Assembly: GCF_050920415.1 (NCBI RefSeq)
Contig: NZ_CP169309.1
DNA length: 64,000 nucleotides
Source: Escherichia coli
GTDB lineage: Bacteria; Pseudomonadota; Gammaproteobacteria; Enterobacterales; Enterobacteriaceae
Direction: 5' to 3' (one strand)
A program made the position numbers and the translations under genes. Every line of letters begins with the position of its first letter. Positions within the stretch are counted from its first letter, which is position 1. This document shows positions 1-49,330 of this stretch, piece by piece. The notes under the pieces are model-generated. The model was not told where the DNA came from. It did no database searches and saw nothing but the letters and a program-made list of their open reading frames with translations.

Positions 1-1
1 C

Positions 2-5012: not shown

Positions 5013-5054
5013 TCCTAACATCCTGAAATGTGCGGGTTGCCCCGCACCAATTTG

Positions 5055-5909
5055 TTAACCTGCAATAGCCATTCCTACTGTCATGTGCAGGCCATAAAAG
5101 AGCACACGCCCGATCATCTCACCGCCAAGTATGAGGATTAGCCCCAGAATAAGTCCGGCAACGTGAGGTTCGCGGCGACGAATGAGCGGGCAAAGCCAGC
5201 ATCCAAGACCTGCGCATAACAATACCACACGCCAGACCTGTAAGGAGGCGTAATCTGGTACCAGTGCGCTGGCTTGTTGCACGGATGAGTGAATAGACGC
5301 CAGAGACAAACCTTGCAGCACAATCACCCCGGCACAAGCGATCAGCGCCAGAACGCTAATGATGGCAAATGGTGTGGTATTAAATGTAACGCGAGCTGCC
5401 CGCAGAATTGCGGCAGCAAGTATTGGACCGCTCAACAATACCGTCAGGAAGAAAGCTAGCGTAGTGTAACCGTTATGCCAGGTTGGCACGGTGTCGATTT
5501 GATACACGCAGGTCATCATCCAGACGAAAATGACGCCGAGCGCCATGCTGACAAGTAACCAGAGTTTCCCCAACGCTTGCGGCATTTTACCGATGACCGC
5601 CACCAGCCACCATAGTCCGCCAACGGCAAAAAATATGGAACCGGCAGCAATCTCGTTACTCAGACCAGAAGCTCCGATTCGATTCAGCGAGTTAAACGCT
5701 CGCAGTGGCGATCCCAGGTGCATGACAGAGGCAATAAACCCGATGCCCATCAACAGCCAGAGGAAAAACATGCCACGGACAATACGCTGACGGTCTGCGT
5801 CATTTTTGGCGGCGAACCAGCCAATTCCGCTAACAATCAGCGCGCCTACTACGCATTGACCCAATACGGTAAAGATAACCAGTGGCCATTCATGCCATCC
5901 ATTTCCCAT
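5055..5909 (-). CDS. ynfH: DMSO-reductase-type membrane anchor subunit (DmsC paralog)
   Basis: 284 aa starting at internal MGNGWHEWPL of ORF 5055..6524; hydrophobic multi-TM protein. Confidence 0.85.
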   Translation of the reverse strand: MGNGWHEWPLVIFTVLGQCVVGALIVSGIGWFAAKNDADRQRIVRGMFFLWLLMGIGFIASVMHLGSPLRAFNSLNRIGASGLSNEIAAGSIFFAVGGLWWLVAVIGKMPQALGKLWLLVSMALGVIFVWMMTCVYQIDTVPTWHNGYTTLAFFLTVLLSGPILAAAILRAARVTFNTTPFAIISVLALIACAGVIVLQGLSLASIHSSVQQASALVPDYASLQVWRVVLLCAGLGCWLCPLIRRREPHVAGLILGLILILGGEMIGRVLFYGLHMTVGMAIAG

Positions 5910-5910
5910 T

Positions 5911-6524
5911 TTACACTTCCTCCGGATTAGCCAGATAACCAGTGGTATCGCCGGTCGGCTGTTGGCGTTAGGTTTGATAACGATATTGGGTTTTGTGAAA
6001 TGCGCGCGCGGCAGTGGCGCGACGGCAGCCAGAGTGCCGTGCTTCTGGCGCAGCTCTTCAATTGGACCGAACTCAAGTGCACGCAGCGGGCAGGATTCGA
6101 CGCATATGGGTTGTTTCCCCTCGGCGACGCGCGAATAACAACCATCGCACTTCGTCATGTGCCCTTTTTCAGCATTGTACTGTGGTGCGCCGTACGGACA
6201 AGCCATGTGGCAGTAGCGGCAGCCGATACAAACATCTTCATCAACCACCACAAAGCCATCTTCACGCTTATGCATTGCGCCGCTGGGGCAGACTTTTGTA
6301 CATGCGGGGTCATCGCAATGGTTACAGGAGATGGAGAGATAATAAGCGAACACGTTCTGGTGCCAGACGCCATTATCTTCCTGCCAGTCGCCGCCAGCGT
6401 ATTCATAAATACGGCGGAAACTGACTTCCGGGCCAAGATCTTTAAAATCTTTGCACGCCAGTTCGCAGGTTTTACAGCCTGTACAGCGGCTGGAATCGAT
6501 AAAAAATCCATATTGTGTGGTCAT
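5911..6524 (-). CDS. ynfG: 4Fe-4S ferredoxin subunit (DmsB paralog) with apparent C-terminal frameshift that fuses the reading frame to ynfH
   Basis: Four CxxCxxCxxxCP clusters; ORF track reads through into ynfH (489-aa fusion ORF); the alternative frame from about 5950 encodes the expected tail ...DTTGYLANPEEV and stops at a TAA overlapping the ynfH ATG. Confidence 0.7.
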
Positions 6525-6534
6525 GGGCTACTCC

Positions 6535-8961
6535 TTAAACCTTTTCGATCTGGACGAGATTGCTGTGCGACGGGTTTCCCTTTGCCAGCGGTGAAGGGCG
6601 GTGAGAGGTCAGAATATTGATACTGCCGCCGTGATCGACCCGGTCACCAAACATATCCGCTTTAAGCCACGCACCTTGCCCGATGGCGGTAACGCCAGGC
6701 AGAATACGCGGAGTCACTTTTGCGGCAATCAGCATTTCTCCATTATTGTTAAATACCCGCACGGTATCGCCATGACGGATACCGCGTGCCTGAGCATCAA
6801 TGGGGTTGATCCACACCTCTTGTGGGCAGGCCTGCTGTAACACATCAATATTGCCGTAGCTGGAGTGGGTACGCGCTTTGTAGTGGAAGCCCGTTAACTG
6901 CAGTGGATAGGTTTTCCGCAGGGGATCGTCCCAGCCATCAAAACCTGGGGTATACGCAGGAAGGGGATGAATAATTTCATCTTTTTTCAATTCCCAGGTA
7001 TCTGCAATCTTCGCCAGTCGTTCAGAATAAATTTCGATTTTCCCCGAAGGTGTTTTCAATGGGTTTGCCTGTGGATCTTCACGGAATGCGCGGAAAGCGA
7101 CGTAATGTTCTTCCGGGCATTTTTTCTTAAAGATCCCGGTCGTTTTCATCTCCTCGTAGTCCGGCATCTCAGGGTTACGTTCCTTCGTTTTCGCATGGAG
7201 ATATTTGATCCATTCATGCTGACTGCGACCTTCAGTAAAGGTTTGATAAACGTCTGGTCCTAAGCGTTTCGCGACTTCACTCAGCATCCAGTAGATGGGT
7301 TTGCGTTCAAATTTTGCTGAGGTTGCGGGTTGGGCGAGGATCACATAGCCCATATTCCCTGCAGATTCATGAGAGATAAGGTCTTCTTGCTCTGTTGGCA
7401 TCAGGTCGGGCAACAGGATATCGCAATACTTAGCCGAGGCCGTCATGAAGTGGTCAATGCCAACAATCATCTCGCACTTGCTGTCATCCTGAAGCACCTC
7501 ATGGGTGTGATTGATGTCGCCATGTTGATTGATCAATGTGTTACTGGCGTAGCACCATAAAAACTTGATGGGGACATCCAGTTTTTCTTTTCCACGAATA
7601 CCATCACGGGTCGCGGTCATTTCCGTACCGTGGTCGATGGCATCTGTCCATGTAAAGACGGAAATCTGCGTTTTAACAGGATTATCAAGCATCGGGAACC
7701 ATTCGACCCCCAGATCCCAGCTACCTTCGCGTACACCTGAGTTGCCGCCGTTTATGCCGACGTTACCGGTGAGAACGGAAAGCATGGCAATAGCGCGGGA
7801 CGTTTGCTCGCCGTTGGAGTGTCGTTGTGGCCCCCAACCCTGACAAATATAAGCAGGTTTTGCTGAACCGATCTCTCGTGCCAACTGGATAATTTTTTCT
7901 GCCGGGATGCTGGTGATTTTTGCTGCCCATTCCGGCGTTTTAGCTATGCCGTCAGGCCCTTCGCCCAGAATATAGGCTTTATAATGCGCGTTACGTGGTG
8001 CGTTGGCGGGCAGCGTTTTTTCATCGTAACCAACACAATATTTGTCGAGAAATGGCTGATCGACCATGTTTTCCGTAATCAGTACCCAGGCAATCGCACA
8101 GGCCAGTGCGCCATCGGTGCCAGGGCGAATGGGCAGCCATTCATCTTCACGCCCGGCAGCTGTGTCGTTATAACGTGGATCAATGACGATCATGCGTGCG
8201 TTTGAACGTTCGCGGGCTTGCTCGACGTAGTAAGTGACACCACCGCCGCTCATCCGGGTTTCTGCCGGGTTATTTCCGAACATAACGACCAGCTTCGTAT
8301 TGGCGATATCATCCGGGCTGTTGCCATCATTGGCACCGAACATATAACTCATTGCGGCACTGATCTGTGCGGTACTGTAGCTGCCATAGCGACTGAGAAA
8401 ACCACCACAAGAGTTCATCAGACGGTACGGGACGTTTGAGTTGGTGATGTTTCCGCCATCTACGCCTGTTCCATAGAGAACATGTACAGCCTCATTGCCG
8501 TAATCTTTTAGGATCCGCCGAAGATTATCACTGATGGTCTCCAGGGCTTCGTCCCAACTTATCCGTTCAAATTTACCTTCACCGCGCTTGCCGACGCGCT
8601 TCATGGGATATTTCAACCTATCAGGATGATTCATCCGTCGGCGGATAGAGCGCCCGCGTAAACAGGCGCGAACCTGATGATTACCGTAGACGTCGTCACC
8701 TGTCGTATCAGACTCCACCCAGTACACAGTGTCATCTTTCACATGCAAACGTAACAGACAGCGGCTCCCGCAGTTAACGGTGCAGGAACTCCAGACCGCT
8801 TTCTCTTCTACCGGAGCCTCTGCCGCTCGGACCATTTGGGAAAATGGCAGAGTGAAAGCACTGCTTGCCAGCGCGAGACTGCCAAGTGCGGAGGTTTTCA
8901 TCAGACTTCTACGGCTGATTTCAGCCTTCATGAGCGCCTCTGTGGTATGGATTTTCATCAT
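6535..8961 (-). CDS. ynfF: Tat-exported molybdopterin oxidoreductase catalytic subunit (DmsA paralog)
   Basis: 808-aa ORF; twin-arginine signal (SRRSLMKTSALGSLALA); N-terminal Cys cluster; Mo-bisPGD domain. Confidence 0.95.
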   Translation of the reverse strand: MMKIHTTEALMKAEISRRSLMKTSALGSLALASSAFTLPFSQMVRAAEAPVEEKAVWSSCTVNCGSRCLLRLHVKDDTVYWVESDTTGDDVYGNHQVRACLRGRSIRRRMNHPDRLKYPMKRVGKRGEGKFERISWDEALETISDNLRRILKDYGNEAVHVLYGTGVDGGNITNSNVPYRLMNSCGGFLSRYGSYSTAQISAAMSYMFGANDGNSPDDIANTKLVVMFGNNPAETRMSGGGVTYYVEQARERSNARMIVIDPRYNDTAAGREDEWLPIRPGTDGALACAIAWVLITENMVDQPFLDKYCVGYDEKTLPANAPRNAHYKAYILGEGPDGIAKTPEWAAKITSIPAEKIIQLAREIGSAKPAYICQGWGPQRHSNGEQTSRAIAMLSVLTGNVGINGGNSGVREGSWDLGVEWFPMLDNPVKTQISVFTWTDAIDHGTEMTATRDGIRGKEKLDVPIKFLWCYASNTLINQHGDINHTHEVLQDDSKCEMIVGIDHFMTASAKYCDILLPDLMPTEQEDLISHESAGNMGYVILAQPATSAKFERKPIYWMLSEVAKRLGPDVYQTFTEGRSQHEWIKYLHAKTKERNPEMPDYEEMKTTGIFKKKCPEEHYVAFRAFREDPQANPLKTPSGKIEIYSERLAKIADTWELKKDEIIHPLPAYTPGFDGWDDPLRKTYPLQLTGFHYKARTHSSYGNIDVLQQACPQEVWINPIDAQARGIRHGDTVRVFNNNGEMLIAAKVTPRILPGVTAIGQGAWLKADMFGDRVDHGGSINILTSHRPSPLAKGNPSHSNLVQIEKV

Positions 8962-9018
8962 TACTCACTTATTGCTTTTCAAACAAAATGTCATGCCAGA
9001 ATTTATGGTTGTAGTGGG

Positions 9019-11206
9019 TTATATTTTTTCGATCTCGACCAGATTAGTGTGCTGCGGGTTTCCCTTCGCCAGTGGTGAAGGGCGCAGAGTGGTTAGCGTA
9101 TTCACACAGCCGCCGTGGTCGATTTTATCGCCAGACATATTGGCCTCGTGCCAGGCTCCCTGGCCCATAGCGCTAACTCCAGGGAGAATGCGTGGTGTCA
9201 CTTTGGCTGGTAGCCGAACTTCGCCACGATGGTTAAACACCCGCACCATATCGCCGTTGGCAATCCCACGTTTCTGTGCATCTATAGGGTTGATCCACAC
9301 TTCCTGACGGCAGGCTGCCTTCAGGACATCAATGTTGCCGTAGGTCGAGTGAGTACGAGATTTGTAATGGAAACCAAACAGTTGTAGCGGGAAGGTACTA
9401 CGTTCAGGGGCGTCCCAGCCTTCGAAGGTTGAGGCATAAACCGGCAGTGGGCTTATTACTTCATCTTTTTCGAGTTCCCAGGTACGGGCAATTTCCGCCA
9501 GTTTGCTGGAATAAATTTCGATCTTACCGGAAGGCGTTTTAAGTGGATTTGTCTCGGGGTCGTCACGAAATGCTTTGTAGGCGATAAAATGACCATTAGG
9601 ATCCTTACGCTTATAGATACCCATTTTTTTCAGTTCGTCGTAAGACGGTAATGCCGGATCTTTGGCAAGCATTTTGGCGTACAGATGTTGTAACCATTGT
9701 TCCTGAGTGCGGCCTTCAGTGAATTTTTGATAGACGTCAGGGCCAAGACGTTTCGCGACTTCACTTAGGATCCAGTAAATCGGTTTGCGTTCGAATTTTT
9801 CGCTGGTGACTGGCTGGAGGAAAATGAGATATCCCATGTTACCGGCGTAATCGTTAGGAATAATATCTTCCTGCTCAACGGTCATCAGGTCTGGCAGCAG
9901 AATGTCGGCATATTTTGCCGATGAGGTCATAAAGTTTTCGATGACCACAATCATTTCGCATTTCGATTCGTCCTGCAGAATTTCATGCGTTTTGTTAATG
10001 TCAGAATGCTGATTAACCAGGGTATTTCCCGCGTAGTTCCAGATGAACTTAATGGGCACATCCAGTTTATCTTTGCCGCGGACGCCGTCGCGGATTGCCG
10101 TCATTTGCGGGCCATGATCGATAGCATCCGTCCAGCTGAAGCAGGAGATTGATGTTTTGACCGGATTATCCAGCACCGGCAGGCGTTCTATGGTAATGGT
10201 ATAGGTGGATTCACGCGCGCCACTATTTCCGCCGCTGATGCCGACATTGCCCGTCAGAATAGGCAACATCGCAATAGCGCGTGCGGTCAGCTCACCGTTT
10301 GCCTGGCGTTGCGGTCCCCAACCCTGGCAGATATAAGCGGGTTTTGCTGTGCCGATTTCACGCGCCAGTTTGATGATACGGTCCACCGGGATACCGGTAA
10401 TTTGCGAAGCCCACTGCGGCGTTTTCGCTGTGTTATCATCACCTTCACCAAGAATATAGGCTTTATAGTGGCCATTTTTTGGTGCATCTGCGGGTAAGGT
10501 TTTTTCGTCATAACCGACGCAGTATTTATCGAGAAAAGGTTGATCAACGAGATTTTCGTTAATCAATGCCATCATTACTGCCGTAGGTGTAGGGCATGGC
10601 ACAGGAAATTTGCGCGGTGCTGTAGGAGCCATACTGGTTGAGTGAACCGCCGTAGCAGTTCATCAGGCGTTTGACCGCCGAGGCTGATGGCGAAGAGCGG
10701 GTCATATTGCCGCCAACGATCCCCGAAGAGTACTGAATATATACAGCCTCATTGCCATATTGTTCGACGGTTTTTTTCAGACTACTGGCGATAGTATCCA
10801 GGGCTTCATCCCAGCTAATCCGTTCGAATTTGCCTTCGCCGCGTTTGCCCACGCGTTTCATTGGGTAATTCAAGCGATCGGGATGATTAATACGCCGACG
10901 GATGGACCGACCGCGCAAACAGGCGCGTACTTGATGATTGCCATACTCGTCGCTGCCGGTGTTGTCAGTTTCCACCCAGGTGACTTCATTATCTTTAACA
11001 TGTAGACGAAGTGCACAGCGGCTACCACAGTTGACGGAACAGGCACCCCAGACCACTTTTTCGCTGGCCTGTTGTACCGCTGCCGCTGCACTGCGCAGGG
11101 TGAACGGTAAAGAAAAACCGCCTGCAGCCAGCGCCAGAGAACCTATCGCGGTAGATTTAACGAGTGTTCTGCGGCTGATGCCCACCATTTGTTCATTTTT
11201 GGACAT
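9019..11206 (-). pseudogene. ynfE: DmsA paralog ynfE disrupted by an internal deletion of about 240 bp with frameshift
   Basis: Two ORFs (10559..11206, 215 aa with Tat signal; 9019..10632, 537 aa) in different frames; alignment to adjacent paralog ynfF shows about 80 residues missing between ...YTYGSNDG and LINENLVDQPF; junction near 10560-10570. Confidence 0.8.
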
Positions 11207-11404
11207 AACTCACTCCCTGTTCTTTATCGTTATATAAAAGTTTATATATTGAATATTTAGCGCGCTAACAATAGAGGGAGTCTACCCATTTTGGGTTAAG
11301 AATTATTAATCCATATCAATAGAAGGGTATGAGTAATAAGGCGGGATTATGTTGTATGTTCATATCGCCGGACCTGTTGAATCCGGCGTTTAGTCAATAA
11401 TGTG

Positions 11405-11710
11405 TTACTGCGGTTCGGCAGGCGCGCCATCCTGAGTAGACTGCGCGGGGGCAGAGACGTTACCGCTGGTGGTGCGGGTGTAAAGAATTTTATGCGTATC
11501 ATTGGCGCAATGCCCGACGACCTGGGAATCAGGCTGATCAACCTGGTCATTGGGTACAATACTTAACGTGAAGCTGCTTTCGGGTACGCCATTATTGATA
11601 ATACGCTGTGATATATCGCTCTTTATGCGCTCACAGGATCCCGGCGCGGCGAGTACCGCGGGTGAGGTGAGTGCGAGCAGAAGCGCGGCACAGCAAGTTG
11701 AGAGTTTCAT
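11405..11710 (-). CDS. ynfD: small secreted protein (DUF1161 family)
   Basis: 101 aa from Met15 of ORF 11405..11752; signal peptide MKLSTCCAALLLALTSPAVLA. Confidence 0.85.
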   Translation of the reverse strand: MKLSTCCAALLLALTSPAVLAAPGSCERIKSDISQRIINNGVPESSFTLSIVPNDQVDQPDSQVVGHCANDTHKILYTRTTSGNVSAPAQSTQDGAPAEPQ

Positions 11711-11817
11711 CATAAGCTCCTTTCGCGAATATAACTTCTTTAAGCATAGCATTTAACGTGTAAAGTACTGTATTTGCTACTATGATTGAGAATCATCTCT
11801 ACTGTCTGGTGACTGTT

Positions 11818-12528
11818 GTGAAATACAAATTACTACCATGCTTACTCGCGATATTACTCACAGGATGTGACCGCACAGAGGTAACACTTTCATTTACCCC
11901 TGAGATGGCTAGTTTCTCTAATGAATTCGATTTTGATCCGCTGCGTGGTCCGGTAAAAGATTTCACTCAGACATTAATGGATGAGCAAGGGGAAGTAACG
12001 AAGCGTGTTTCGGGGACTTTGTCGGAAGAAGGCTGTTTTGATTCACTCGAATTATTGGATCTGGAAAATAATACCGTGGTTGCCCTGGTATTGGACGCCA
12101 ATTATTACCGTGATGCCCAGACGCTGGAGAAAAGAGTACGTTTACAGGGAAAATGCCAGCTAGCAGAATTACCTTCTGCCGGGGTGAGTTGGGAAACCGA
12201 TGATAATGGCTTCGTGATTAAAGCCAGCAGCCAACAAATGCAGATGGAATATCGCTATGATGATCAGGGTTATCCGCTGGGTAAAACCACGAAAAGTAAC
12301 GACAAAACATTATCTGTTAGCGCTACGCCATCAACGGATCCGATCAAAAAATTAGATTACACAGCGGTTACTTTACTGAATAATCAACGGGTTGGTAATG
12401 TAAAACAGAGCTGTGAATATGACAGTCACGCCAATCCGGTAGACTGTCAGCTAATCATTGTTGATGAAGGAGTAAAACCCGCCGTCGAACGGGTTTATAC
12501 CATCAAAAATACTATCGATTATTATTAA
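11818..12528 (+). CDS. ynfC: UPF0257 lipoprotein
   Basis: 236 aa from GTG within ORF 11782..12528; lipobox LLTGC. Confidence 0.85.
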   Translation: MKYKLLPCLLAILLTGCDRTEVTLSFTPEMASFSNEFDFDPLRGPVKDFTQTLMDEQGEVTKRVSGTLSEEGCFDSLELLDLENNTVVALVLDANYYRDAQTLEKRVRLQGKCQLAELPSAGVSWETDDNGFVIKASSQQMQMEYRYDDQGYPLGKTTKSNDKTLSVSATPSTDPIKKLDYTAVTLLNNQRVGNVKQSCEYDSHANPVDCQLIIVDEGVKPAVERVYTIKNTIDYY

Positions 12529-12530
12529 TG

Positions 12531-13091
12531 CTATTGTGCGGTCGGCTTCAGGAGAGTCTGACCCGGTGTTTTGTGCTCTGCCAGATACTGATGCTGGAAT
12601 ATGCACATGCGAATGGCATTCCGATATTGACCATTAATAAAGAACTCATGCATCAATTCACCTTCAACCGTAAAGCCAAGCTTGCGGTAAATGTGAATCG
12701 CTTTTTCATTCTCTTTATCGACGATCAGATACAGCTTATAGAGATTGAGAACGGTGAAGCCATAGTCCATTGCTAATTTTGCAGCACGCGTTGCCAGACC
12801 TTTCCCCTGATATTCCGGGGAGATAATTATCTGAAATTCTGCGCGGCGATGAACATGGTTAATTTCCACCAGCTCCACCAGACCGGCTTTTTCGCCGTCA
12901 CATTCCACCACAAAGCGCCGTTCGCTCTGATCGTGAATATGCTTATCGTACAGATCAGAGAGTTCAACAAAGGCTTCGTAGGGTTCCTCAAACCAGTAAC
13001 GCATCACACTGGCGTTATTGTCGAGTTGATGTACATAGCGTAAATCTTCACGCTCCAGCGGGCGTAGCTTAACACTGTGGGCGCTTGGCAT
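12531..13091 (-). CDS. speG: spermidine N1-acetyltransferase
   Basis: 186-aa GNAT acetyltransferase; recognised SpeG sequence. Confidence 0.95.
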
Positions 13092-13125
13092 AACGTGTCC
13101 TTACATTCCTTAAATCAATAACAGG

Positions 13126-13467
13126 TTAGGGGGTAATAACGCGGCCAGTTCGACGGTCCAGGCAGCGCAAAGTATTTGGCTCCCAGTAGGCATTGATATT
13201 GGCGCTTTGCTCACATTTATCGCGGTTATCAAAAGCGGCGTCGGCTTTATCCCACTCTTTTTCAGTGCGTTTATTCACTTTCTGGCGCAGATTGCGCGTG
13301 TCATTCCATTGCTCTTTTTCCATAGCGGCGTGCTGGCGGCTTTGTGCACTGTCGCCAGACTCAATCACCAGTTTGTTAGTTTCGGCATGAACAGTTGTGC
13401 TCAATGCCAGTGCGCAAGGCAGCAGAAAAGCGAGCAGGCCAATTCGTTTGCTGAGAGTAATTTTCAT
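13126..13467 (-). CDS. ynfB: UPF0482 secreted protein
   Basis: 113-aa ORF with signal peptide; synteny. Confidence 0.85.
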
Positions 13468-13601
13468 AATTCATTCCCTGTATGAATGATTAAAGGTGAT
13501 TCTACACCATCCACTGCGAACGCAAAACGTACCAGGAGGATGTTTATATTGATGATATTATGTCGTCCTATAACTATACATGATGTCAATAAGTGACAAA
13601 G

Positions 13602-13928
13602 ATGATTAAAACAACGTTACTATTTTTTGCTACTGCGCTGTGTGAAATTATTGGATGCTTTCTGCCCTGGTTGTGGTTGAAACGAAACGCCAGTATCTGG
13701 CTGTTGCTTCCGGCGGGGATTTCTCTGGCACTGTTTGTCTGGTTGTTAACGTTGCATCCTGCGGCGAGTGGGCGTGTTTACGCGGCTTATGGTGGCGTTT
13801 ATGTCTGCACGGCGTTGATTTGGCTGCGCGTTGTGGATGGCGTGAAACTGAGTCTTTATGACTGGACGGGGGCGTTGATTGCGCTTTGCGGCATGTTGAT
13901 CATTGTTGCGGGCTGGGGGCGCGCGTAA
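13602..13928 (+). CDS. ynfA: UPF0060 small membrane protein
   Basis: 108 aa from Met4 of ORF 13593..13928; four hydrophobic segments. Confidence 0.85.
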
Positions 13929-14133
13929 GGACATAAATCCATTTTATCAATAAGATACAAGGAAGTGTCAGCTGACAAAAGGTATTCTATTTCATCTTTT
14001 GTCAACCATTCACGGCGCAAATATACGCCTTTTTTTGTGATCACTCCGGCTTTTTTCGATCTTCATACTTGTATGGTAGTAGCTCAGTTGCGTAGATTTC
14101 ATGCATCACGACAAGCGATGCAAGGAATCGAAC

Positions 14134-15348
14134 ATGAAGATCGTAAAGGCTGAAGTTTTTGTTACCTGTCCGGGGCGTAATTTCGTCACATTAAAAATCA
14201 CCACTGAGGACGGTATTACGGGCCTTGGGGATGCCACCCTCAATGGACGTGAGCTTTCCGTGGCCTCTTATTTGCAGGATCACCTTTGTCCGCAGCTTAT
14301 TGGTCGCGATGCACAGCGTATCGAAGATATCTGGCAGTTTTTCTATAAAGGTGCTTACTGGCGTCGCGGTCCGGTGACGATGTCGGCCATTTCAGCGGTT
14401 GATATGGCGTTGTGGGATATTAAAGCCAAAGCTGCCAACATGCCGCTTTACCAGTTACTCGGCGGCGCGTCTCGTGAAGGGGTGATGGTTTATTGCCATA
14501 CCACCGGTCACAGTATTGATGAAGCTCTGGATGATTATGCCCGTCATCAGGAGCTGGGATTCAAAGCCATCCGCGTGCAGTGCGGAATCCCTGGTATGAA
14601 AACCACCTACGGCATGTCGAAAGGCAAAGGTCTGGCTTATGAACCCGCAACCAAAGGACAGTGGCCGGAAGAGCAGCTGTGGTCGACGGAGAAATACCTC
14701 GATTTCATGCCGAAATTGTTTGACGCGGTACGTAACAAGTTTGGTTTTAATGAACATTTGCTGCATGACATGCACCATCGCTTAACGCCTATTGAAGCGG
14801 CGCGCTTTGGTAAAAGCATTGAAGATTATCGCATGTTCTGGATGGAAGACCCGACGCCTGCGGAAAACCAGGAATGCTTCCGTCTCATTCGCCAACATAC
14901 CGTCACACCCATCGCGGTGGGTGAAGTCTTCAACAGCATCTGGGACTGCAAACAGCTGATTGAAGAACAACTTATCGACTATATCCGCACCACGCTGACT
15001 CACGCGGGGGGGATTACCGGTATGCGCCGGATTGCCGATTTTGCTTCGTTGTATCAGGTACGTACTGGCTCACACGGTCCTTCCGATTTGTCACCAGTCT
15101 GCATGGCTGCGGCGCTGCACTTTGATCTGTGGGTCCCCAATTTCGGTGTCCAGGAATACATGGGCTATTCCGAACAAATGCTCGAAGTCTTCCCGCACAA
15201 CTGGACTTTCGATAACGGCTATATGCATCCGGGAGACAAACCGGGTCTTGGCATCGAATTCGATGAAAAGCTGGCGGCGAAATATCCCTATGAACCTGCT
15301 TATCTGCCAGTCGCACGTCTGGAAGATGGCACGCTGTGGAACTGGTAA
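14134..15348 (+). CDS. rspA: starvation-sensing protein RspA (enolase-superfamily mannonate dehydratase-like)
   Basis: 404 aa from Met12 of ORF 14101..15348; recognised RspA sequence. Confidence 0.95.
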
Positions 15349-24114: not shown

Positions 24115-24964
24115 AAGCACGGTGTTCGGGGTTTTTTATGAGCAGCAAGCTTCATGGTCTTGTCTGGGAAGGGTGCGCCTTCACCGGCATGATCTTATCC
24201 AGGGTGGCAGTAATGGCTCGCCTTGCAGACTACAGCAATGACGAAGGTGTGTCATGGCCTGCAGTGGAGACCATTCGTCGTCAGATTGGGGCAAAGAGTG
24301 AATCAACGGTTAAAGCGGCGATAGCGGAACTGGAAAAGAACGGCTGGCTGACGAAGGAGGAGCGTAAGGTCGGTGGGCGTAATGAAAGCAATATCTACCG
24401 CCTTAATGTGGAAAAACTCGAAGCAGCAGCTGAGGCGGCGCGTGAGGCATATAAACCGAAAAGAAAAATTAGCCCGGCAAAAAATGACCCGTTAACAGTT
24501 GACCAGTCAAATATTGCCCCCTCAACGGTTGACCCGTCAAATTTTGATGGATCAACCGTTGGTAAAAAACAGCCGGTTAGGGGGGCGATGGTTGGCCCCG
24601 ATCCGTCAGTATTAAAACCTGATCCGTCAGATAAAAGATCTTTTCGTCCGGAAGCTTCGCAACCGGACCCGCAGACGGCTGAACAGGATTTTTTAACCCG
24701 ACATCCTGATGCGGTTGTGTTTAGTGCAAAAAAACGTCAGTGGGGAACTCAGGAGGATTTGGCATGCGCACAGTGGATCTGGGGGCGAATCGTGAGTCTT
24801 TACGAACAGGCCGCCAGCGATGATGGCGAGATCACCCGACCGAAAGAACCCAACTGGACAGCATGGGCCAATGACGTGCGCATAATGCGGATGCTGGATG
24901 GCAGAACTCACAGACAAATCTGTGAACCGCCCCGGGTTTCCTGGAGAGTGTTTTATCTGTGAAC

Positions 24965-25831
24965 TCAGGCTGCCAGATCATTGTTTCCGATGGAAGCATA
25001 ATAAGCTTTTTCTGCTTCTGCCGGAGGAGTATGGCCCAGCCTTCCCAGCAATCGTCGATTGTTATACCAGTCCACCCACGTGAGTGTGGCCAGTTCCACT
25101 TCTGCACGGTTTTTCCAGCTCTTACGGTGTATTACCTCCGCTTTGTAAAGACCATTGATGCTCTCAGCCATCGCGTTGTCATACGAGTCGCCTGTACTCC
25201 CTGTTGATGCCAGCAGTTTTGCTTCTTTTAGTCGCTCCGTATAGGCCAGTGACACATACTGAGAGCCTTTATCGCTGTGATGGATGGTGCCAGACGGACG
25301 ACGGGCCCACAACGCCTGCTCCAGCGCATCCAGCACGAATGTCGTTTCCATAGACGATGAGACCCGCCACCCCACGATGTATCCGGCAAACACATCAATG
25401 ATGAACGCCACATAGACGAAGCCCTGCCATGTGCTGACGTAAGTAAAATCAGCCACCCACAGCTGGTCAGGACGTTCTGCCACGAACTGACGGTTTACGC
25501 GGTCACCTGTGGCAACGGTTTTCCGGCTGACGGTAGTGCGGACCTTTTTACCCCGGAGAACACCGGCAAGTCCCATAACCGCCATGAGGCGCGCCACTGT
25601 ACATCTGGCCACCCTGATTCCTTCCCGTAACAACTGACGCCAGACTTTACGCACACCGTACACCTGATGATTTTCATCGTATACGCGCTGTATCTCTCTC
25701 TTCAGCCAGTCATCGCGCTGCGCACGGGCACTGCGTTTATCAGGATGATGCCGCTGCTGCTGACAATGGTAATACGTTGACGGGGCAATATGCAGTTCAC
25801 TGCATACCGGTCCGACCCCCGTACTGCTCAC
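24965..25831 (-). CDS. IS3-family transposase OrfB (DDE integrase domain)
   Basis: 288-aa ORF with DDE catalytic region; expressed as OrfAB by -1 frameshift. Confidence 0.85.
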   Translation of the reverse strand: MSSTGVGPVCSELHIAPSTYYHCQQQRHHPDKRSARAQRDDWLKREIQRVYDENHQVYGVRKVWRQLLREGIRVARCTVARLMAVMGLAGVLRGKKVRTTVSRKTVATGDRVNRQFVAERPDQLWVADFTYVSTWQGFVYVAFIIDVFAGYIVGWRVSSSMETTFVLDALEQALWARRPSGTIHHSDKGSQYVSLAYTERLKEAKLLASTGSTGDSYDNAMAESINGLYKAEVIHRKSWKNRAEVELATLTWVDWYNNRRLLGRLGHTPPAEAEKAYYASIGNNDLAA

Positions 25832-25852
25832 GCAGCTTATCCAGCAGTGGCA

Positions 25853-26179
25853 TTATTTTTTCCAGAGGCGGTCGAACTCCGCCTTCGCAAAATAAGCGGA
25901 AGCCTGGCGAAGGATATCGTTACTGCGGCGCAGTTCACGATTTTCACGTTCCAGCTCTTTCAGACGCTGACGTTCAGCGGTGGTGAGCCCACCATCACCG
26001 CTCCCGGTATCCCTCTCATGCTGGCGAACCCAGACACGCAGAGTCTCTGGCGTACAGCCAATCTTTGGAGCAATGGAACAAATTGCCGCCCATTGTGAGT
26101 CATATTCGCCCTGACTTTCCAGAACCATACGAACTGCGCGTTGACGGACTTCGGGGGAAAAACGAGTATTTTTAGTCAT
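25853..26179 (-). CDS. IS3-family transposase OrfA (HTH and leucine zipper)
   Basis: 108 aa, [19 protein letters not shown]...; recognised IS629-type OrfA. Confidence 0.85.
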
Positions 26180-26454
26180 CCTGTTTACCTCTTTCTCAGG
26201 AAGTTTAGTCTCCAGGATTTCCGGGGCGGTTCACTGCGAAATGTTTGGTCGGGTACAGCGGGATCCATTCTGGGTAAAAAACATCATGAGCCCGTCAAAA
26301 CTTCGCGATAAATGGGATGAGCTGGTTATCCGTCTGGGGCGTTCGCCTGTACAGCGTTGTGTGAATCATATTTCTGAACCTGACACCGAAATTCCACCAG
26401 GGTTCAGGGGGTAGGTATTGATTTCAGATCATGAGGTAATTTTCAGGAGGACTT

Positions 26455-26877: not shown

Positions 26878-27341
26878 CGAGATTAAAGAGCATTAATACA
26901 TATGTGAATTGACATTTCTGTGGCACAGGGCTAGAACTATTCTCATTGTCAGCGTTGTGCCAGAGTCTGATGTTTGTTGTACATTTGGACGAATAGACGG
27001 CGTTGTTAACTTTAAAAATAACACAGGAACACTTTGAGAAAGTGAACAGGCGTATTTATTTTTTGCTGATGAAGGAGAGTAACTTTAATTTGGGTAATTA
27101 GATTGATAATAGGCCAGACGAAAATAACATTCTGGCACACTTTTGGTCGCTACAGTCATTAGTTAATTTTAAGTGATAAATTTTTATCCATAAGTTAACA
27201 CTAGTGTGTCATCTAGCGAAACCGAATCGCTTTAATCCATAACTTAAAGTTGAATCAGTGGGGTAGCAGTAGGTATGCCGGAACTGATAAACTGTGCAGA
27301 AGGCTAAACATTCATTCACTCGTGAGATAGTAGCATAAATT

Positions 27342-27686
27342 ATGCAAAGAATTATTCCTGATAAAAATTGGTGGGAAAAAGAGCGTATTAATCGTAAAGC
27401 ATCATCAAAATGCCCATATGCTAGTTCATACAGATGTCCTCGGTACTATCAGAGTGTAGTTTTGCTCTCAAGCATCAATATGATAGCTGGTATGGCAACT
27501 AGGAAAGAAAAAGAGTTGGGCGAATTTGGGGAAAGAACTAGTTTCTCATATTTATGTGATGAAGAAGTCCCAACAGTTACTACAAAAGAATATGGCGGCC
27601 TTGCATCAGTTAGTAATTTTTGCCCAGAAATATCATTTAGATATTTACACTATTACGCCGATTATATGTGTAAATATGTTGATTAG
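27342..27686 (+). CDS. hypothetical Cys-containing protein (low-GC cassette A, gene 1)
   Basis: 114-aa ORF in markedly AT-rich DNA after a 460-bp AT-rich non-coding leader; Cys pairs CPY...CPRY. Confidence 0.4.
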   Translation: MQRIIPDKNWWEKERINRKASSKCPYASSYRCPRYYQSVVLLSSINMIAGMATRKEKELGEFGERTSFSYLCDEEVPTVTTKEYGGLASVSNFCPEISFRYLHYYADYMCKYVD

Positions 27687-27755
27687 ATAGATCAGGATAC
27701 TGGCAGGCGTAGTGCGGAAAAAGATAATTTAGAAAATGATTGGAAATATACATGG

Positions 27756-28208
27756 ATGTCAGTCAATCCTAAATTTTATTTAGATTGCGATGTTTTTGAA
27801 AGTGTCAAAAACTTCAATGAAGAATTGGCTAGTGATTACTTAAAGAGATTGCATCCAAATATCATTCAGCAAATAGATAGAATGAATAATTGCTTGGATA
27901 ATAATGACCCTGCGGGTGCACTGCACGCAGCCTCTAATATTCTAGAAACTATGGCGAAGGAAATCACTCAAAACCCGAATGTGGCAAATGAGTCATTGGG
28001 TGGTTTTTTTAAACAGTTCGAAAAAATGTCAAAATTACCTAAGAATCTTATTGATATTGTTAAAGATATTTATGATTTACGCAACAAACTACCTACTGCT
28101 GGACACGGAAGCTTGAACAGGCCTGAATTAACTATGGTAGAAGCTATAACTATTGCGGCAATGACAAAGGCGATTTTAGAAATTGAATATCGAAGCAAAG
28201 CCATCTAA
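27756..28208 (+). CDS. hypothetical protein (low-GC cassette A, gene 2); C-terminal R-N-x5-G-H-G segment possibly HEPN/Abi-like
   Basis: 150-aa ORF; predicted mostly helical; DLRNKLPTAGHGSLNRPE near C-terminus; no confident family assignment. Confidence 0.45.
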   Translation: MSVNPKFYLDCDVFESVKNFNEELASDYLKRLHPNIIQQIDRMNNCLDNNDPAGALHAASNILETMAKEITQNPNVANESLGGFFKQFEKMSKLPKNLIDIVKDIYDLRNKLPTAGHGSLNRPELTMVEAITIAAMTKAILEIEYRSKAI

Positions 28209-28705
28209 CAAACATAAATTATGTGGTTCAAATTCCCGCTATACTTCTGTGTTATTGCCGCCAGCGTCTACTTATCGCTGTGAGTTCAACGGGGCGATGA
28301 TGCGTTAGAGATCTCTGAATCGATTGAAGTCTAAGGTTGTCAGGGCTGTAACAGTAGCCCTGTGTCATGAAAGGATTGCATATTAATTAACGAAGAACAG
28401 ACCAATAGCATTGATAGTTGTTTTCAAAAATAGACCAATAACAAACACGACTGGCCATCTCATCGATTTTCGACAGTATGCAGAAATGGGCGGGATCCAC
28501 ACGCAGTACCAGCTTGCTAAGATAAACGAAAAGGAGACTTTAACCAGTCAGTGGCTGCATGCTGATGGTGATCCGCTATGGGCCGTAGATGTTGTTTGAT
28601 GTACGCAGAAAGAGACGACGAAGGGCACTATGCCGAAAACTAAATCGGTTTTAGAGATTAACCGCGCTGGTGAGCTGGAGTGATTGACTTTTAGAACGCC
28701 AGAAA

Positions 28706-28733
28706 GCAAAAACCTCACAATCGAGTGAGGTTT
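28706..28733. terminator. bidirectional rho-independent terminator between the two accessory cassettes (approximate)
   Basis: Hairpin AACCTCAC-aatcgag-GTGAGGTT flanked by an A-run upstream and T-run downstream; immediately 3' of the minus-strand cassette. Confidence 0.5.
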
Positions 28734-28746
28734 TGTTAAGGGCTTA

Positions 28747-29379
28747 CTATTTTTTGGCAATTAGTGCATGCATCGCCATTTCATGACCTTTTCTGCGAAG
28801 TTTTTTCACACGGGGCTTGAGCCTAGTGAAAGAACTTGGGCTAATTGTCGACTCAGCTTCAACTATATCATTGCGGGGAGCACCCGTTTTAGCATCTTCA
28901 TAGCGGATAAGTATTTTAAACGTGCCCTCATCAACTCCGACACCTTGCAAGTGATGAAGTTTAGATGAAACAGCACCGATTAAATAATCATGAATTCCTT
29001 GCAGGCCCGTTTTACCGATTGGTGAATAGGTATGCAACATATTTGCACCTACAGGAAGGAACTGGCGAAAGTCAGGAACATGCATCTTGTTAACTTCAAC
29101 AGAAGTGTATGCTTTCATGTCAAAAGAAACTCCAGGTTTCCGTGCATTGACTTCTAGCCATTGAGGCAAATCGAGAATATATTTGCTCTCAGCAGTTACT
29201 TCCAGTTTCTTCCTAGACGATAATGTCACGTCCATTACCTGAGCCATATCAGCCATAGAAAGCTCAGCGGCCTTCCGGTTGATGGCTTGTACCCGCTCGC
29301 TCACGTTAGGTCCGAATGCATCGAACAACGAAATTTCAGCAGCTGGTTTAATGGCTTCAGTTTTAACAGACATATACAC
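28747..29379 (-). CDS. hypothetical protein, partner of zeta-like kinase (cassette B, gene 2)
   Basis: 210-aa ORF about 19 nt downstream of the kinase gene on the same strand; no recognisable motif. Confidence 0.5.
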   Translation of the reverse strand: MYMSVKTEAIKPAAEISLFDAFGPNVSERVQAINRKAAELSMADMAQVMDVTLSSRKKLEVTAESKYILDLPQWLEVNARKPGVSFDMKAYTSVEVNKMHVPDFRQFLPVGANMLHTYSPIGKTGLQGIHDYLIGAVSSKLHHLQGVGVDEGTFKILIRYEDAKTGAPRNDIVEAESTISPSSFTRLKPRVKKLRRKGHEMAMHALIAKK

Positions 29380-29398
29380 TCCTTAGATAGGACACTTA

Positions 29399-30097
29399 TT
29401 ATACACCTAAATGCGCTAGATCGCTAACGTCTGAATATGGGCAGCTATGGGAGGTAGTCCAGTTTTCAAGGGTCACGTTAGGAGTATAGTCGACCACGAA
29501 CTGACCATCATTTTCAGGATCTTCCCGTCGATGATAAACATTGAGTGTAAATAGGCCTGCATATTTCGCGAGCATATGTTCAATGGTCTCTCTGCTCTTG
29601 AAAAAGTTCGCTTTAAGAACCTCTAACGGAACCTTACGAGAGCGGGCTTGGGCAAAAACCCACGCGTAAGCCGGATCAAAATAGACGTAATTCAGTGCTA
29701 CCTGATAACCAGCCTTCAGGGCCAGATCAAAGTTTCTCTCCGCAATACCTATACTGGAGAAAGTAGAGTCCATAACAATGGGATAGCCTTCAGATAGCGC
29801 TTTTTTGTAGATAAAATCGACCATTCTGGAGGCAGGTCTCTGATAGTCCACAGAGTTCTCTTCATTGTAGTAGGGGAACCACCAGCGAAAATCATCAGCA
29901 TCAATTCGAACAATGTTTGTGATGCCATGTTGTTCTAAAAGACGATTTAAGAGCTCGGTTTTACCTGCAGCAGGCGAACCAGCCATAAACAGGACGTGCT
30001 TGGCATTGGCATTTTTGTTTGCTGTTACGTAACTATAAACGTAAGGGCGAATTGCCTCACCAAACTCAGGCAGTATGGTTTCAAGTTCTTTTTTCAT
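29399..30097 (-). CDS. zeta-toxin-like P-loop kinase (cassette B, gene 1)
   Basis: 232-aa ORF; Walker A FMAGSPAAGKTEL followed about 20 residues later by RIDADDFR, the arrangement seen in zeta/PezT/AvrRxo1-type kinases; low-GC context. Confidence 0.6.
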   Translation of the reverse strand: MKKELETILPEFGEAIRPYVYSYVTANKNANAKHVLFMAGSPAAGKTELLNRLLEQHGITNIVRIDADDFRWWFPYYNEENSVDYQRPASRMVDFIYKKALSEGYPIVMDSTFSSIGIAERNFDLALKAGYQVALNYVYFDPAYAWVFAQARSRKVPLEVLKANFFKSRETIEHMLAKYAGLFTLNVYHRREDPENDGQFVVDYTPNVTLENWTTSHSCPYSDVSDLAHLGV

Positions 30098-30261
30098 CGG
30101 TAAATCATGCCGTGGTAGTTTTAGTTTTATTTAACAATATCATAAACGTTTAAAGATGGTTACAAATTAGCTAGATTTGTGAGCGCTTTAACCTCTAAAA
30201 CCCTCTGGAACCCAATACCGCTTTTCTGGCTGTCTTTTCAATACGGCATCCAGCGCATCAC

Positions 30262-30600
30262 TTACTCGGTCTGTATGCGGTTCATTGCTGAAGTCGCCAG
30301 TTGCGGGTAAATCTGCATCTCTGCGCCGTTTAAGATTCGCGTATTTACGCGCAAGCGCTCGATGGCTTCATTTTGCTGGTGGCTTTCCTTCCTCGCGGCT
30401 ATTCTAGCTATCTGATTGGCTGCTATGGCCTTTGCCGCTGTCATGGAATGCGCCAGAGTCTTATCCGTCATCATTACACGCTGCGTTTCCAGCATGCTGG
30501 AATGATCTCTTTTTGTTGTTCTTGAAGAAGAACTCTTATTCTTCGGTATATCATTTTGACAGGGGGCAGTGTAAGTATCCCTGCAAAACGAACCATTCAC
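30262..30600 (-). CDS. hypothetical protein (weak call)
   Basis: 112-aa ORF; the C-terminal 70 aa look protein-like, the N-terminal part may be spurious. Confidence 0.3.
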   Translation of the reverse strand: MNGSFCRDTYTAPCQNDIPKNKSSSSRTTKRDHSSMLETQRVMMTDKTLAHSMTAAKAIAANQIARIAARKESHQQNEAIERLRVNTRILNGAEMQIYPQLATSAMNRIQTE

Positions 30601-30610
30601 TTTAACAGAT

Positions 30611-30907
30611 ATGTCAATTTCCGCTCATCGTTCAAAGCGGACTAGAAGGTTAGCTTGCGTCGGACTTGGCGTTTTTAAAGAAGTGCTGGTGGTGACTGGT
30701 TGTTGTGTTCCATTTCTACAGAACAAAATCACAGAAACTATTCCCAATAGTTTTATTGAATCAATGATGAGACAGCCTCATATTTATCAGGACTGGTGTA
30801 CGTCCAATACAGGAGGTTGTCGTGCTGGTTCTCAAATGTGCGCTCGCTATTGCGGCTGTAATGGCAATTTATTGTCTTGCTGTTGTTCTTATGGATCGCC
30901 TTTCTGA
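30611..30907 (+). CDS. hypothetical Cys-rich small protein (weak call)
   Basis: 98-aa ORF; C-terminal 45 aa contain 9 Cys (CRAGSQMCARYCGCNGNLLSCCCSYGSPF); no RBS evaluated. Confidence 0.25.
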   Translation: MSISAHRSKRTRRLACVGLGVFKEVLVVTGCCVPFLQNKITETIPNSFIESMMRQPHIYQDWCTSNTGGCRAGSQMCARYCGCNGNLLSCCCSYGSPF

Positions 30908-31122
30908 TTGATTTTATATTGGCGAGGTGACGGGAGTTAAGTAGGATTGCTGCGGGTGCTTGAGGCTATCTGTCTCAGGCATGAATACCAACGGCAGATA
31001 GAGAAAAGCCCCAGTTAACATTACGCGTCCTGCAAGACGCCTAACATTAATCTGAGGCCATATCTATGACTTGCACACGTAGGTTAGCCTCTTACGTGCC
31101 GAAAGGCAAGGAGAAGCAGGCT

Positions 31123-31353
31123 ATGAAGCAGCATAAGGCGATGTTAATCGCCCTGATTGTCATCTGTTTAACTGTCATTGTGACGGCACTGGTAACGAGG
31201 AAAGATCTCTGTGAGGTACGAATCCGAACCAGCCAAACGGAGGTCGCTGTCTTCACAGCTTACGAACCTGAGGAGTTAGAGACCAGGCGAGGGAGAAATC
31301 CCTCGCCACCTCTGATGAGTCAGGCATCCTCAATGCACCCACACTTAACTTGA
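31123..31353 (+). CDS. hokD: Hok/Gef-family type I toxin (HokD/RelF-like) with C-terminal extension
   Basis: MKQHKAMLIALIVICLTVIVTALVTRKDLCEVRIRTSQTEVAVFTAYEPEE matches the Hok family; the expected stop after EPEE is TTA here and the ORF continues 25 codons; GC-rich hairpin GGCGAGGGAGAAATCCCTCGCC within the extension; in frame with an upstream mok-like ORF from 31066. Confidence 0.8.
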   Translation: MKQHKAMLIALIVICLTVIVTALVTRKDLCEVRIRTSQTEVAVFTAYEPEELETRRGRNPSPPLMSQASSMHPHLT

Positions 31354-31737
31354 TTCGGCGGGTTTATTTTATCTGTAAATATTTTTATAAAAATAATGCC
31401 CACACACAGCATAAAACAAAAAGTATCACAGATAAAAAAGGAGCGTAATGTGCAGATTTGTTGTTTTCCATATTTACTCGCTTTAACATAATCAATATTG
31501 ATATGGTTGTTATTTCGGTGGTTTCAAACGAGATATTATGGTGATCTGGCAAATTTGCATAACATTAAAATTTAATTTATCTAATCGCTTTTAATAATAA
31601 GCGTTGTGTTTTATCCCAGCAATCTGTTGTTTGATTTTTATTTCATTAATGTAGGGGCTTTACACTGGAACCAGTTTATTTATACTTTATACGCCAGCCT
31701 GAACAACTGGCACCTGCTGCGCCAGCAGAGACAACCG

Positions 31738-39562: not shown

Positions 39563-39726
39563 TTCAAAAAACGAAAGAACGGAGGTACGTATGTACGCAC
39601 TGAAAAAGATTACGGTAACTGAAGATGGTCGTCAGTAGACTGGCCCCCTGAATCTCCAGACAACCAGTATCACTTAAATAAGTGATAGTCTTAATACTAG
39701 TTTTTAGACTAGTCATTGGAGAACAG

Positions 39727-40092
39727 ATGATTGATGTCTTAGGGCCGGAGAAACGCAGACGGCGTACCACACAGGAAAAGATCGCAATTGTTCAGCAGAG
39801 CTTTGAACCGGGGATGACGGTCTCCCTCGTTGCCCGGCAACATGGTGTAGCAGCCAGCCAGTTATTTCTCTGGCGTAAGCAATACCAGGAAGGAAGTCTT
39901 ACTGCTGTCGCCGCCGGAGAACAGGTTGTTCCTGCCTCTGAACTTGCTGCCGCCATGAAGCAGATTAAAGAACTCCAGCGCCTGCTCGGCAAGAAAACGA
40001 TGGAAAATGAACTCCTCAAAGAAGCCGTTGAATATGGACGGGCAAAAAAGTGGATAGCGCACGCGCCCTTATTGCCCGGGGATGGGGAGTAA
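39727..40092 (+). CDS. insC: IS2 transposase InsC (OrfA)
   Basis: 121 aa from [18 protein letters not shown]...; recognised IS2 InsC. Confidence 0.9.
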
Positions 40093-40955
40093 GCTTAGTC
40101 AGCCGTTGTCTCCGGGTGTCGCGTGCGCAGTTGCACGTCATTCTCAGACGAACCGATGACTGGATGGATGGCCGCCGCAGTCGTCACACTGATGATACGG
40201 ATGTGCTTCTCCGTATACACCATGTTATCGGAGAGCTGCCCACGTATGGTTATCGTCGGGTATGGGCGCTGCTTCGCAGACAGGCAGAACTTGATGGTAT
40301 GCCTGCAATCAATGCCAAACGTGTTTACCGGATCATGCGCCAGAATGCGCTGTTGCTTGAGCGAAAACCTGCTGTACCGCCATCGAAACGGGCACATACA
40401 GGCAGAGTGGCCGTGAAAGAAAGCAATCAGCGATGGTGCTCTGACGGGTTCGAGTTCTGCTGTGATAACGGAGAGAGACTGCGTGTCACGTTCGCGCTGG
40501 ACTGCTGTGATCGTGAGGCACTGCACTGGGCGGTGACTACTGGCGGCTTCAACAGTGAAACAGTACAGGACGTCATGCTGGGAGCGGTGGAACGCCGCTT
40601 CGGCAACGATCTTCCGTCGTCTCCAGTGGAGTGGCTGACGGATAATGGTTCATGCTACCGGGCTAATGAAACACGCCAGTTCGCCCGGATGTTGGGACTT
40701 GAACCGAAGAACACGGCGGTGCGGAGTCCGGAGAGTAACGGAATAGCAGAGAGCTTCGTGAAAACGATAAAGCGTGACTACATCAGTATCATGCCCAAAC
40801 CAGACGGGTTAACGGCAGCAAAGAACCTTGCAGAGGCGTTCGAGCATTATAACGAATGGCATCCGCATAGTGCGCTGGGTTATCGCTCGCCACGGGAATA
40901 TCTGCGGCAGCGGGCTTGTAATGGGTTAAGTGATAACAGATGTCTGGAAATATAG
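40050..40955 (+). CDS. insD: IS2 transposase InsD (OrfB, DDE)
   Basis: 301-aa ORF; recognised IS2 InsD; overlaps insC for -1 frameshift fusion. Confidence 0.9.
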
Positions 40956-41236
40956 GGGCAAATCCAGTCAGGTTGAGGAAGTGCATGTCCTGGGGGGATA
41001 TGTATCGTATGGAGTTTTACCCGCGTAATACCCATCTGGCAGCAAAAATTGAGTATTGCCGGAACGGGAATATTTCATGTTTGCAGGTAGAGAAAACGGA
41101 TGAGGCTTATATCACTACGCTGAACGGCGATACGATGTCAGCGCCAATGATATAAGACAGTAATTCACCATTTGGATTGTCCGCTCCACCCAACATGTTG
41201 TTTCCTTAAGGTTCCTACACCACAAAGGGAACACTC

Positions 41237-43202
<1,966 letters not shown>

Positions 43203-43419
43203 TGACCAATAGCGGACATTAAAAATGGCGAAAAACGGCCAATAATCTTGGCGTTGACAACGATGCGTTGCATCTGTCGCGGCGACAGTAAAGCCCGGAA
43301 TGAAATGGCCAGATGTCGTACTCATACCAGTGAATAACAAGTAAAACCCCGGCGGCTGAAACAACCAAGGGGTTAACAGTGTAAATAAAACTGCCCATAT
43401 TGATGGGCAGCGCATGTAA

Positions 43420-44920: not shown

Positions 44921-45125
44921 AGCGGGTTTTCGCTATTTACGAGTTTTTTTGAGGTGATGGTTGTTGTTTTATCGTTTGATATATCTACTTGATAAGTAAT
45001 AAGAAAGAAAAATAAACACAACAACCTGATGATCTTTCTTATACGAAAAAGCATGTAAAATCAGAGGGTTTTACAAAAAACGTGGTTGTTGTATTGCTTT
45101 TTTGCCGGTGGTTTATGGAGGGGCT

Positions 45126-45632: not shown

Positions 45633-49310
<3,678 letters not shown>

Positions 49311-49330
<20 letters not shown>

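Follow-up and report, generated by a model that had tools for sequence, protein, structure and literature searches.

A very recent IS629-group insertion with a CTG target duplication splits an O-like replication gene in an Escherichia coli prophage

The window analysed here, 64,000 nt of Escherichia coli contig NZ_CP169309.1, contains a lambda-like prophage beside rspB whose O-like replication gene is split by an IS3-family element of the IS629/IS1203 group. The explanation that fits the locus best, and in which we have very high confidence, is that this element transposed into codon 262 of the gene, duplicating the target CTG and truncating the encoded protein, that replication of the prophage was most likely lost as a result, and that the insertion is very recent. 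The event is real, as it was first described from the letters of the window, but ordinary, and its kind is already known.

The element occupies 24923-26233 (1311 bp), carries its transposase on the minus strand, antisense to the interrupted gene, and has TG...CA ends. Alignment with three other copies in different flanks fixed these ends at TGAACCGCC... (24923) and ...GGCGGTTCA (26233). A repeat search returned inverted repeats of 26 nt at 24922-24947 and 26209-26234, 88% complementary. Placing the ends one base further out, where the repeat extends as G...C, was rejected because copies in unrelated flanks start and stop at TG...CA and because only the TG...CA ends give a duplication that agrees with the empty site. 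The gene, the duplications and the termini are arranged as follows.

24138..24922, plus strand: O-like gene, 5′ part (codons 1-261 and two further nt), matching nt 1-785 of the intact gene at 100% identity
24920..24922, no strand: left target-site duplication CTG; one CTG only in empty sites
24923..24947, no strand: terminal inverted repeat, orfB end; 22 of its first 25 positions match the opposite end
26209..26233, no strand: terminal inverted repeat, orfA end, from the repeat search
26234..26236, no strand: right target-site duplication CTG; one CTG only in empty sites
26237..26414, plus strand: O-like gene, 3′ part (third base of codon 262 to codon 320 plus stop), matching nt 786-963 of the intact gene at 100% identity

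A 3-bp match alone has a chance of 1 in 64; comparison with empty sites settles the matter. Removal of 24923-26236 (the element plus one CTG) restored a 963-nt ORF, 320 codons uninterrupted by any stop, and six complete E. coli genomes (ARS-C301, EC261, MS 119-7, 2017.18.04CC, MB07081 and MFDS1022581) carry the intact annotated gene WP_001349596.1, to which this ORF is 100% identical (963/963 nt). When the loci of ARS-C301 and MFDS1022581 were aligned with the window, the alignment was interrupted exactly at the element, and the reference had a single CTG where the window has one on either side. The 100% match to the empty site shows that the two fragments are halves of one gene, that the insertion was precise and that the 3-bp duplication is real. 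The claims of the sequence-only reading thus stand on these points. It had described an IS629-like insertion with a 3-bp duplication into one gene, and CTG is indeed found once in the empty site and on both sides here; it had also proposed a simple transposition into a previously intact gene, with which the identity of the rejoined ORF to an intact gene agrees. It had placed the sequences before and after the element in the same frame, and the ORF starting before the element (24138-24962) and the one following it (26241-26414) do lie in one window frame, the inserted length of 1311 + 3 = 1314 nt being a multiple of 3. The interval that it gave for the event, 24138-26414, runs from the start codon to the stop codon of the split gene. 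Alignment of the two halves to intact homologues, the check it had proposed, assigned both to one gene: the fragments do not come from different genes, and the target duplication persists on exact realignment. No observation speaks against the insertion itself.

The same comparison bears on two other accounts of the locus. Recombination between IS copies, or an IS-adjacent deletion, could have joined two genes or two prophages, and the material for such a rearrangement is at hand in related genomes, where IS629-group elements are numerous (median 4 places per genome) and homologous O-like genes lie in several prophages (up to 6 places per genome). However, the 3-bp duplication around the element is perfect, in MFDS1022581 and ARS-C301 a single prophage is collinear with both flanks, no base being gained or missing, and the ORF obtained on rejoining matches one intact gene at 100%; the rearrangement is refuted by the empty-site comparison, and we give it practically no credence. 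An assembler might also have misplaced a repeat copy. Signs of homopolymer errors are seen in the closest public genome, and an exact look-up of the 274-aa truncated protein in the public gene collection returned no record. A misplaced repeat would not, however, yield a precise 3-bp duplication at the exact termini within an otherwise perfect gene, and the prophage contains an independent new IS2 that shows the same pattern, with the canonical 5-bp duplication, so that an assembly artefact is extremely improbable.

The interrupted gene had been called phage replication-initiator-like, and the rebuilt protein bears this out by matching PHROG 391, 'replication initiation O-like', over its entire length (residues 1-320 versus 1-298 of 298, E 2.7e-113). 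PHROGs with the names replisome organizer and DnaD-like helicase loader match its C-terminal part as well, and a tblastn search with residues 1 to 320 gave 58% identity to O/primosomal proteins of isolated phages (SfII, SfIV, Kati, SKA5 and others). The genes run in the order LexA-like repressor (minus strand), Cro-like, CII-like/YdaT, O-like gene and Ren-like DUF977 gene, and this early-right position after cro/cII-type genes is the one that characterizes O-like genes. With lambda O and the O-like initiators of SfII, SfIV and the Rac YdaU type, the gene thus has in common the early-right operon position, an N-terminal winged-helix domain and intragenic repeats, besides the full-length PHROG 391 match and the identity to the SfII/SfIV proteins. 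It differs from lambda O in that a Pfam search of the rebuilt protein gave no match to Phage_rep_O and in that no P-type or DnaC-type loader gene follows it.

Some of the annotation would suit a DNA-binding regulator, in which case the interruption would have no bearing on prophage replication. HTH_36, at residues 25-71, is the sole Pfam domain, the interrupted protein has no NCBIfam match, and the RefSeq name of WP_001349596.1 is merely 'helix-turn-helix domain-containing protein'. We nevertheless consider a regulator improbable: besides the match to PHROG 391 there are several others to O-like, replisome-organizer and DnaD-like PHROGs, the gene lies in the O position downstream of cro and cII-like genes, no gene of that region in SfIV and Kati other than its homologue is a candidate for replication, iteron-like repeats lie within it, and in O157 Z866 a DnaC-like ATPase gene follows a homologue that is 89-91% identical.

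A gene for a helicase loader of the P or DnaC type is annotated neither beside the homologue in SfIV and Kati nor as the following gene here. The proposal that, with no such loader, the prophage was without a replication module before the insertion was rejected, because SfIV and Kati are equally loader-less; the absence of a loader here is thus normal for the class, and the interrupted gene appears to be the sole replication function.

The repeats within the gene are, by analogy with lambda, candidates for the iterons of an origin. They lie in DNA coding for a variable protein linker.

24498..24630, no strand: candidate iterons within the gene, upstream of the element and intact; repeats with dyad symmetry

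The motif GTTGACC(A/C)GTCAAAT occurs at 24498 and 24528, with an inverted copy at 24543-24561, and GATCCGTCAG occurs at 24600 and 24621. The lambda ori likewise sits inside gene O.

The insertion at codon 262 of 320 breaks the reading frame after codon 261, and the current ORF runs into the element as far as 24962, giving a 274-aa product with a 13-aa tail derived from the IS. In alignments with SfIV and Kati, the best-conserved region is C-terminal (approximately residues 176-296), together with the terminal IPxGFRG. The element lies inside the conserved block DGRTH-QIC/EM-RV-RDPFW-SPSKLR-KWDEL (the slash marking the break), and the detached 3′ part encodes EMF-RV-RDPFW-SPSKLR-KWDEL and the terminal IPxGFRG. 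In the course of events reconstructed here, an IS629/IS1203-group copy transposed into codon 262 of the O-like gene in the lambda-like prophage beside rspB, with duplication of the CTG target. The resulting 274-aa protein keeps the N-terminal winged-helix DNA-binding domain and lacks half of the conserved C-terminal domain, the candidate iterons stay intact in the DNA, and the prophage would most likely be unable to start its own replication after induction. The role presumed for the C-terminal domain in this phage class is to bring in the host replication machinery, given that SfIV and Kati have no separate loader annotated next to the homologue. Since the break lies in the best-conserved block and SfIV and Kati have no adjacent loader, we infer that autonomous replication of the prophage has likely been lost, and the prediction that follows is that the prophage cannot replicate on its own. 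The truncated 274-aa protein might retain partial activity. Other resident prophages could still amplify this one by trans-complementation or regional replication; O157 Sakai prophages with broken replication genes are still amplified through other prophages (PMC2669165). Terminator-like sites within the element number three versus 2.5 expected, a count that carries no information on polarity downstream.

Retention of the origin-binding N-terminal domain with loss of the recruiting C-terminal half also suggests a more speculative role, in which the 274-aa protein would act as a dominant-negative blocker of the replication of incoming phages with the same origin specificity. If true, the insertion would have created a superinfection-exclusion function, a possible reason for retention of the protein; we consider this very improbable.

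The consequence of the insertion is a matter on which a further account deserves weight, namely that the prophage was non-viable beforehand and that the element landed as a neutral event in a decaying prophage instead of causing its defect. The lysis/late region holds an IS21-family element common to the window and MFDS1022581, which is therefore older than the IS629-type insertion. Nonetheless, the prophage has structural, terminase, integrase and excisionase genes, and within the window its portal ORF is intact. Earlier non-viability is a tangible possibility, although we incline against it; it concerns the consequence only and is compatible with transposition into codon 262 as the best explanation.

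The element itself has the hallmarks of the IS3 family. Its length and its imperfect TG...CA repeats fit the 1.2-1.55 kb elements of the family, its 3-bp CTG duplication lies within the family range of 3-5 bp, it scores 305 bits against NCBIfam NF033516 transpos_IS3 (cut-off 160), and Pfam identifies HTH_21, rve (E 1.2e-25) and rve_3, which establishes a DDE transposase at the domain level. The ORF architecture of the family is also present, with orfA, an A6 slippery run and an RNA structure, the body of orfB being displaced by one base.

24965..25831, minus strand: orfB body, DDE transposase domain, 288 codons, from NCBIfam and Pfam
25781..25898, minus strand: ALIL pseudoknot RF01497, Rfam 114 bits versus a gathering score of 50, E 3.1e-30
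25816..25820, minus strand: C5 run (G5 on the coding strand), one base more than in all six compared copies (G4)
25853..26179, minus strand: orfA, 108 aa, intact, with its stop TAA at 25853-25855; N-terminal part of NCBIfam transpos_IS3
25856..25861, minus strand: A6 run (T6 on the plus strand) closing orfA; in intact copies a programmed -1 frameshift here yields the OrfA-OrfB fusion

By the ISfinder convention, isoforms share roughly 90-95% nucleotide identity or more. Against the copies of O157:H7 Z866 and strain E8, which RefSeq labels 'IS3-like element IS1203 family', the identity of the element is 97.1% (37 substitutions and one gap); against plasmid copies of Shigella sonnei and S. flexneri it is 94.9-95.2%. 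The copy in RM9088 is 99.9% identical (0 mismatches, 1 gap); this variant, for which RefSeq gives the label 'IS3 family transposase' only, is also found in UTAK-1 and several OkiPb bovine isolates, and MFDS1022581 carries copies of it elsewhere in the genome (99.7-99.8% identity). It is the rarer variant, with 43 records at 99% identity or above. IS629 subtypes differ by 4-5%, IS1203 and IS3411 are treated as isoforms, and duplications of 3-4 bp are recorded (Rump et al., PMC3271280). Because the published subtypes differ to this extent, the element falls within the IS629 group, and it is very likely an IS629 isoform as judged by comparison with IS1203-named and Shigella plasmid copies; 'IS629-like' is a fair name for it. 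With IS629/IS1203 of the IS3 group (isoforms IS1203, IS1203v and IS3411) it has in common a length of about 1310 bp, imperfect TG...CA repeats, the 3-bp duplication, a 108-aa orfA, an orfB in the -1 frame, the A6 slippery site, the ALIL pseudoknot and a DDE (rve) transposase. It differs by its 37 substitutions from the O157 IS1203 type and by about 5% from the Shigella plasmid copies, and it carries an extra base (1311 bp) that breaks OrfAB.

Identical copies are annotated in RefSeq with 'programmed frameshift', and ALIL is the frameshift-stimulating RNA element of IS3-family elements. A single additional g of the window appears in the ALIL alignment, in the second stem (5′ arm). The extra base is a +1 frameshift located 12 codons past the slippery site, inside the pseudoknot; it puts the orfB body into the orfA frame, yet behind the orfA stop codon. 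As sequenced, the copy lacks a complete OrfAB, the predicted fusion stopping at 127 aa versus 404 in intact copies. Among the full-length matches listed in complete genomes at 98.2% identity or above, the span is 1305-1310 bp and none has 1311. In the MFDS1022581 assembly, homopolymer lengths differ in several genes and also in the IS copies that it carries. The extra base could be either a sequencing error in a homopolymer or a true inactivation; in the latter case the copy moved with transposase supplied in trans or acquired the mutation after it had landed. The base matters for the activity of this copy and leaves its family assignment unaffected. Should the base be real, a transposase-dead IS629 may have been mobilised in trans very recently, an idea that we hold to be as improbable as the dominant-negative one.

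An element of this type had also been taken to hint at an O157-like or Shigella-like background, a suggestion that finds no backing in the distribution of the group. IS629-group elements (at least 80% query coverage) are present in 3042 of the 5426 complete E. coli genomes, so that their presence says little about background. Identity to the O157 IS1203 type stops at 97.1%, and to the Shigella plasmid copies at about 95%, while the variant to which this copy is 99.9% identical comes from bovine, crow and food isolates, and over 14,140 nt the chromosomal flank matches the food isolate MFDS1022581 at 100%.

That flank, window positions 1-14140, corresponds to the MFDS1022581 chromosome from ynfM to rspA (14,140/14,140 nt identical), and the prophage starts after rspB. 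From upstream of rspA to the IS2 site (window 13940-39635), the two genomes differ by three SNPs and this IS only, the SNPs falling within 24.4 kb that are otherwise collinear, and the prophage of MFDS1022581 has an empty site. Because this near-clonal genome has the empty site in the same prophage, the insertion is judged to be very recent, within a clone bearing the same IS variant elsewhere. A search of 5426 complete E. coli genomes with the 2277-nt region found no genome with the same insertion, and the 40-nt left junction had 0 matches in IMG/VR viral contigs. Matches with 92% and 78% coverage (O111 strains, Z866 and E8) were rejected as instances of the same insertion, being IS1203-family copies elsewhere that arose by independent events.

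Homologous O-like genes are split by independent IS1203-family insertions elsewhere too, with a TTG duplication in O157:H7 Z866 and AAC in strain E8. IS629 insertions are the main source of variation, in copy number and position, among otherwise identical prophages, and their targets in STEC prophages include the roi, lysozyme and methyltransferase genes of Stx2a phages and nu1 of Sakai Sp4 (PMC4587872, PMC2669165). The insertion described here is the same kind of event, at another site (codon 262, CTG), in another prophage (beside rspB) and in another host lineage. Its general significance is small, as a textbook IS knock-out of a prophage gene. It separates the strain from the near-identical MFDS1022581 and could be used as an IS-typing marker. 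A second new insertion, an IS2 at 39636-40966 with a 5-bp duplication GTCAG, is likewise absent from MFDS1022581, and the new IS629-type and IS2 insertions together show ongoing IS activity in the lineage. Like the older IS21-family element, the new IS2 lies in the lysis/late region of the prophage.

The IS629-type copy carries one additional base in the homopolymer at 25816-25820, which cuts its OrfAB transposase to 127 aa. None of the listed full-length matches to this copy in complete genomes has its length of 1311 bp, so on sequence comparison the extra base appears to be unique to the copy in the window. The copy may be truly inactivated, or the base may be an artefact of sequencing.

Two related prophages also carry IS1203-family elements within their homologous O-like replication genes, at positions different from that in the window:

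L001 (strain E8) 4001-5310: IS1203-family element, 3-bp duplication AAC
L002 (O157:H7 Z866) 4581-5890: IS1203-family element, 3-bp duplication TTG

These two insertions arose independently, and the O-like gene family is therefore a recurrent or tolerated IS target. Inside the O-like gene of the window, iteron-like repeats with dyad symmetry span 24498-24630 and were left undamaged by the IS629-type insertion. They include two copies of GTTGACC(A/C)GTCAAAT at 30-bp spacing together with one inverted copy, as well as two copies of GATCCGTCAG at 21-bp spacing, and represent a candidate phage origin.

Comparison with the otherwise near-identical prophage of MFDS1022581, a near-clonal E. coli food isolate, revealed an IS2 at 39636-40966 that is not present in that prophage. 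It is the second recent IS insertion in the window and lies about 45 nt inside the small gene directly following the GH108 endolysin gene. An IS21-family element in the lysis/late region is common to both prophages.

39636-40966: IS2, 1331 bp, 99.9% identical to 'IS3-like element IS2 family'
39631-39635 and 40967-40971: 5-bp target duplication GTCAG of the IS2
about 41136-43259: IS21-family element, 99.4% to ISEc62-family copies

The istA ORF of the IS21-family element in the window encodes 348 aa only (41237-42283). Single-base indels at 42039, 42257 and 42492 separate this copy from that of MFDS1022581, and therefore represent frameshifts or errors in one or both assemblies.

Beyond the insertions, substitution clusters at 45000-51000 and 57000-59000 distinguish the two prophages, suggesting recombination patches in head/tail genes. 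The portal gene, intact in the window, is frameshifted in the MFDS1022581 record by a 1-nt gap at window position 48736. In the chromosomal flank (1-14140), the window is 100% identical to MFDS1022581.

47729-49330: portal ORF, intact, 533 aa
about 5911-6524: ynfG, selenate/DMSO-type reductase subunit
about 9019-11206: ynfE, selenate/DMSO-type reductase subunit

Both ynfG and ynfE are marked as frameshifted in the RefSeq record of MFDS1022581, and the window has the identical sequence there.

Cargo was placed via 12089-16022 of L005, the locus of an empty-site relative:

about 27300-31500: cargo region, flanked by the replication module and the nin/Q region

The annotation of the relative lists for this region one zeta-toxin family protein along with several hypothetical proteins encoded on the opposite strand, and a truncated hok/gef gene.
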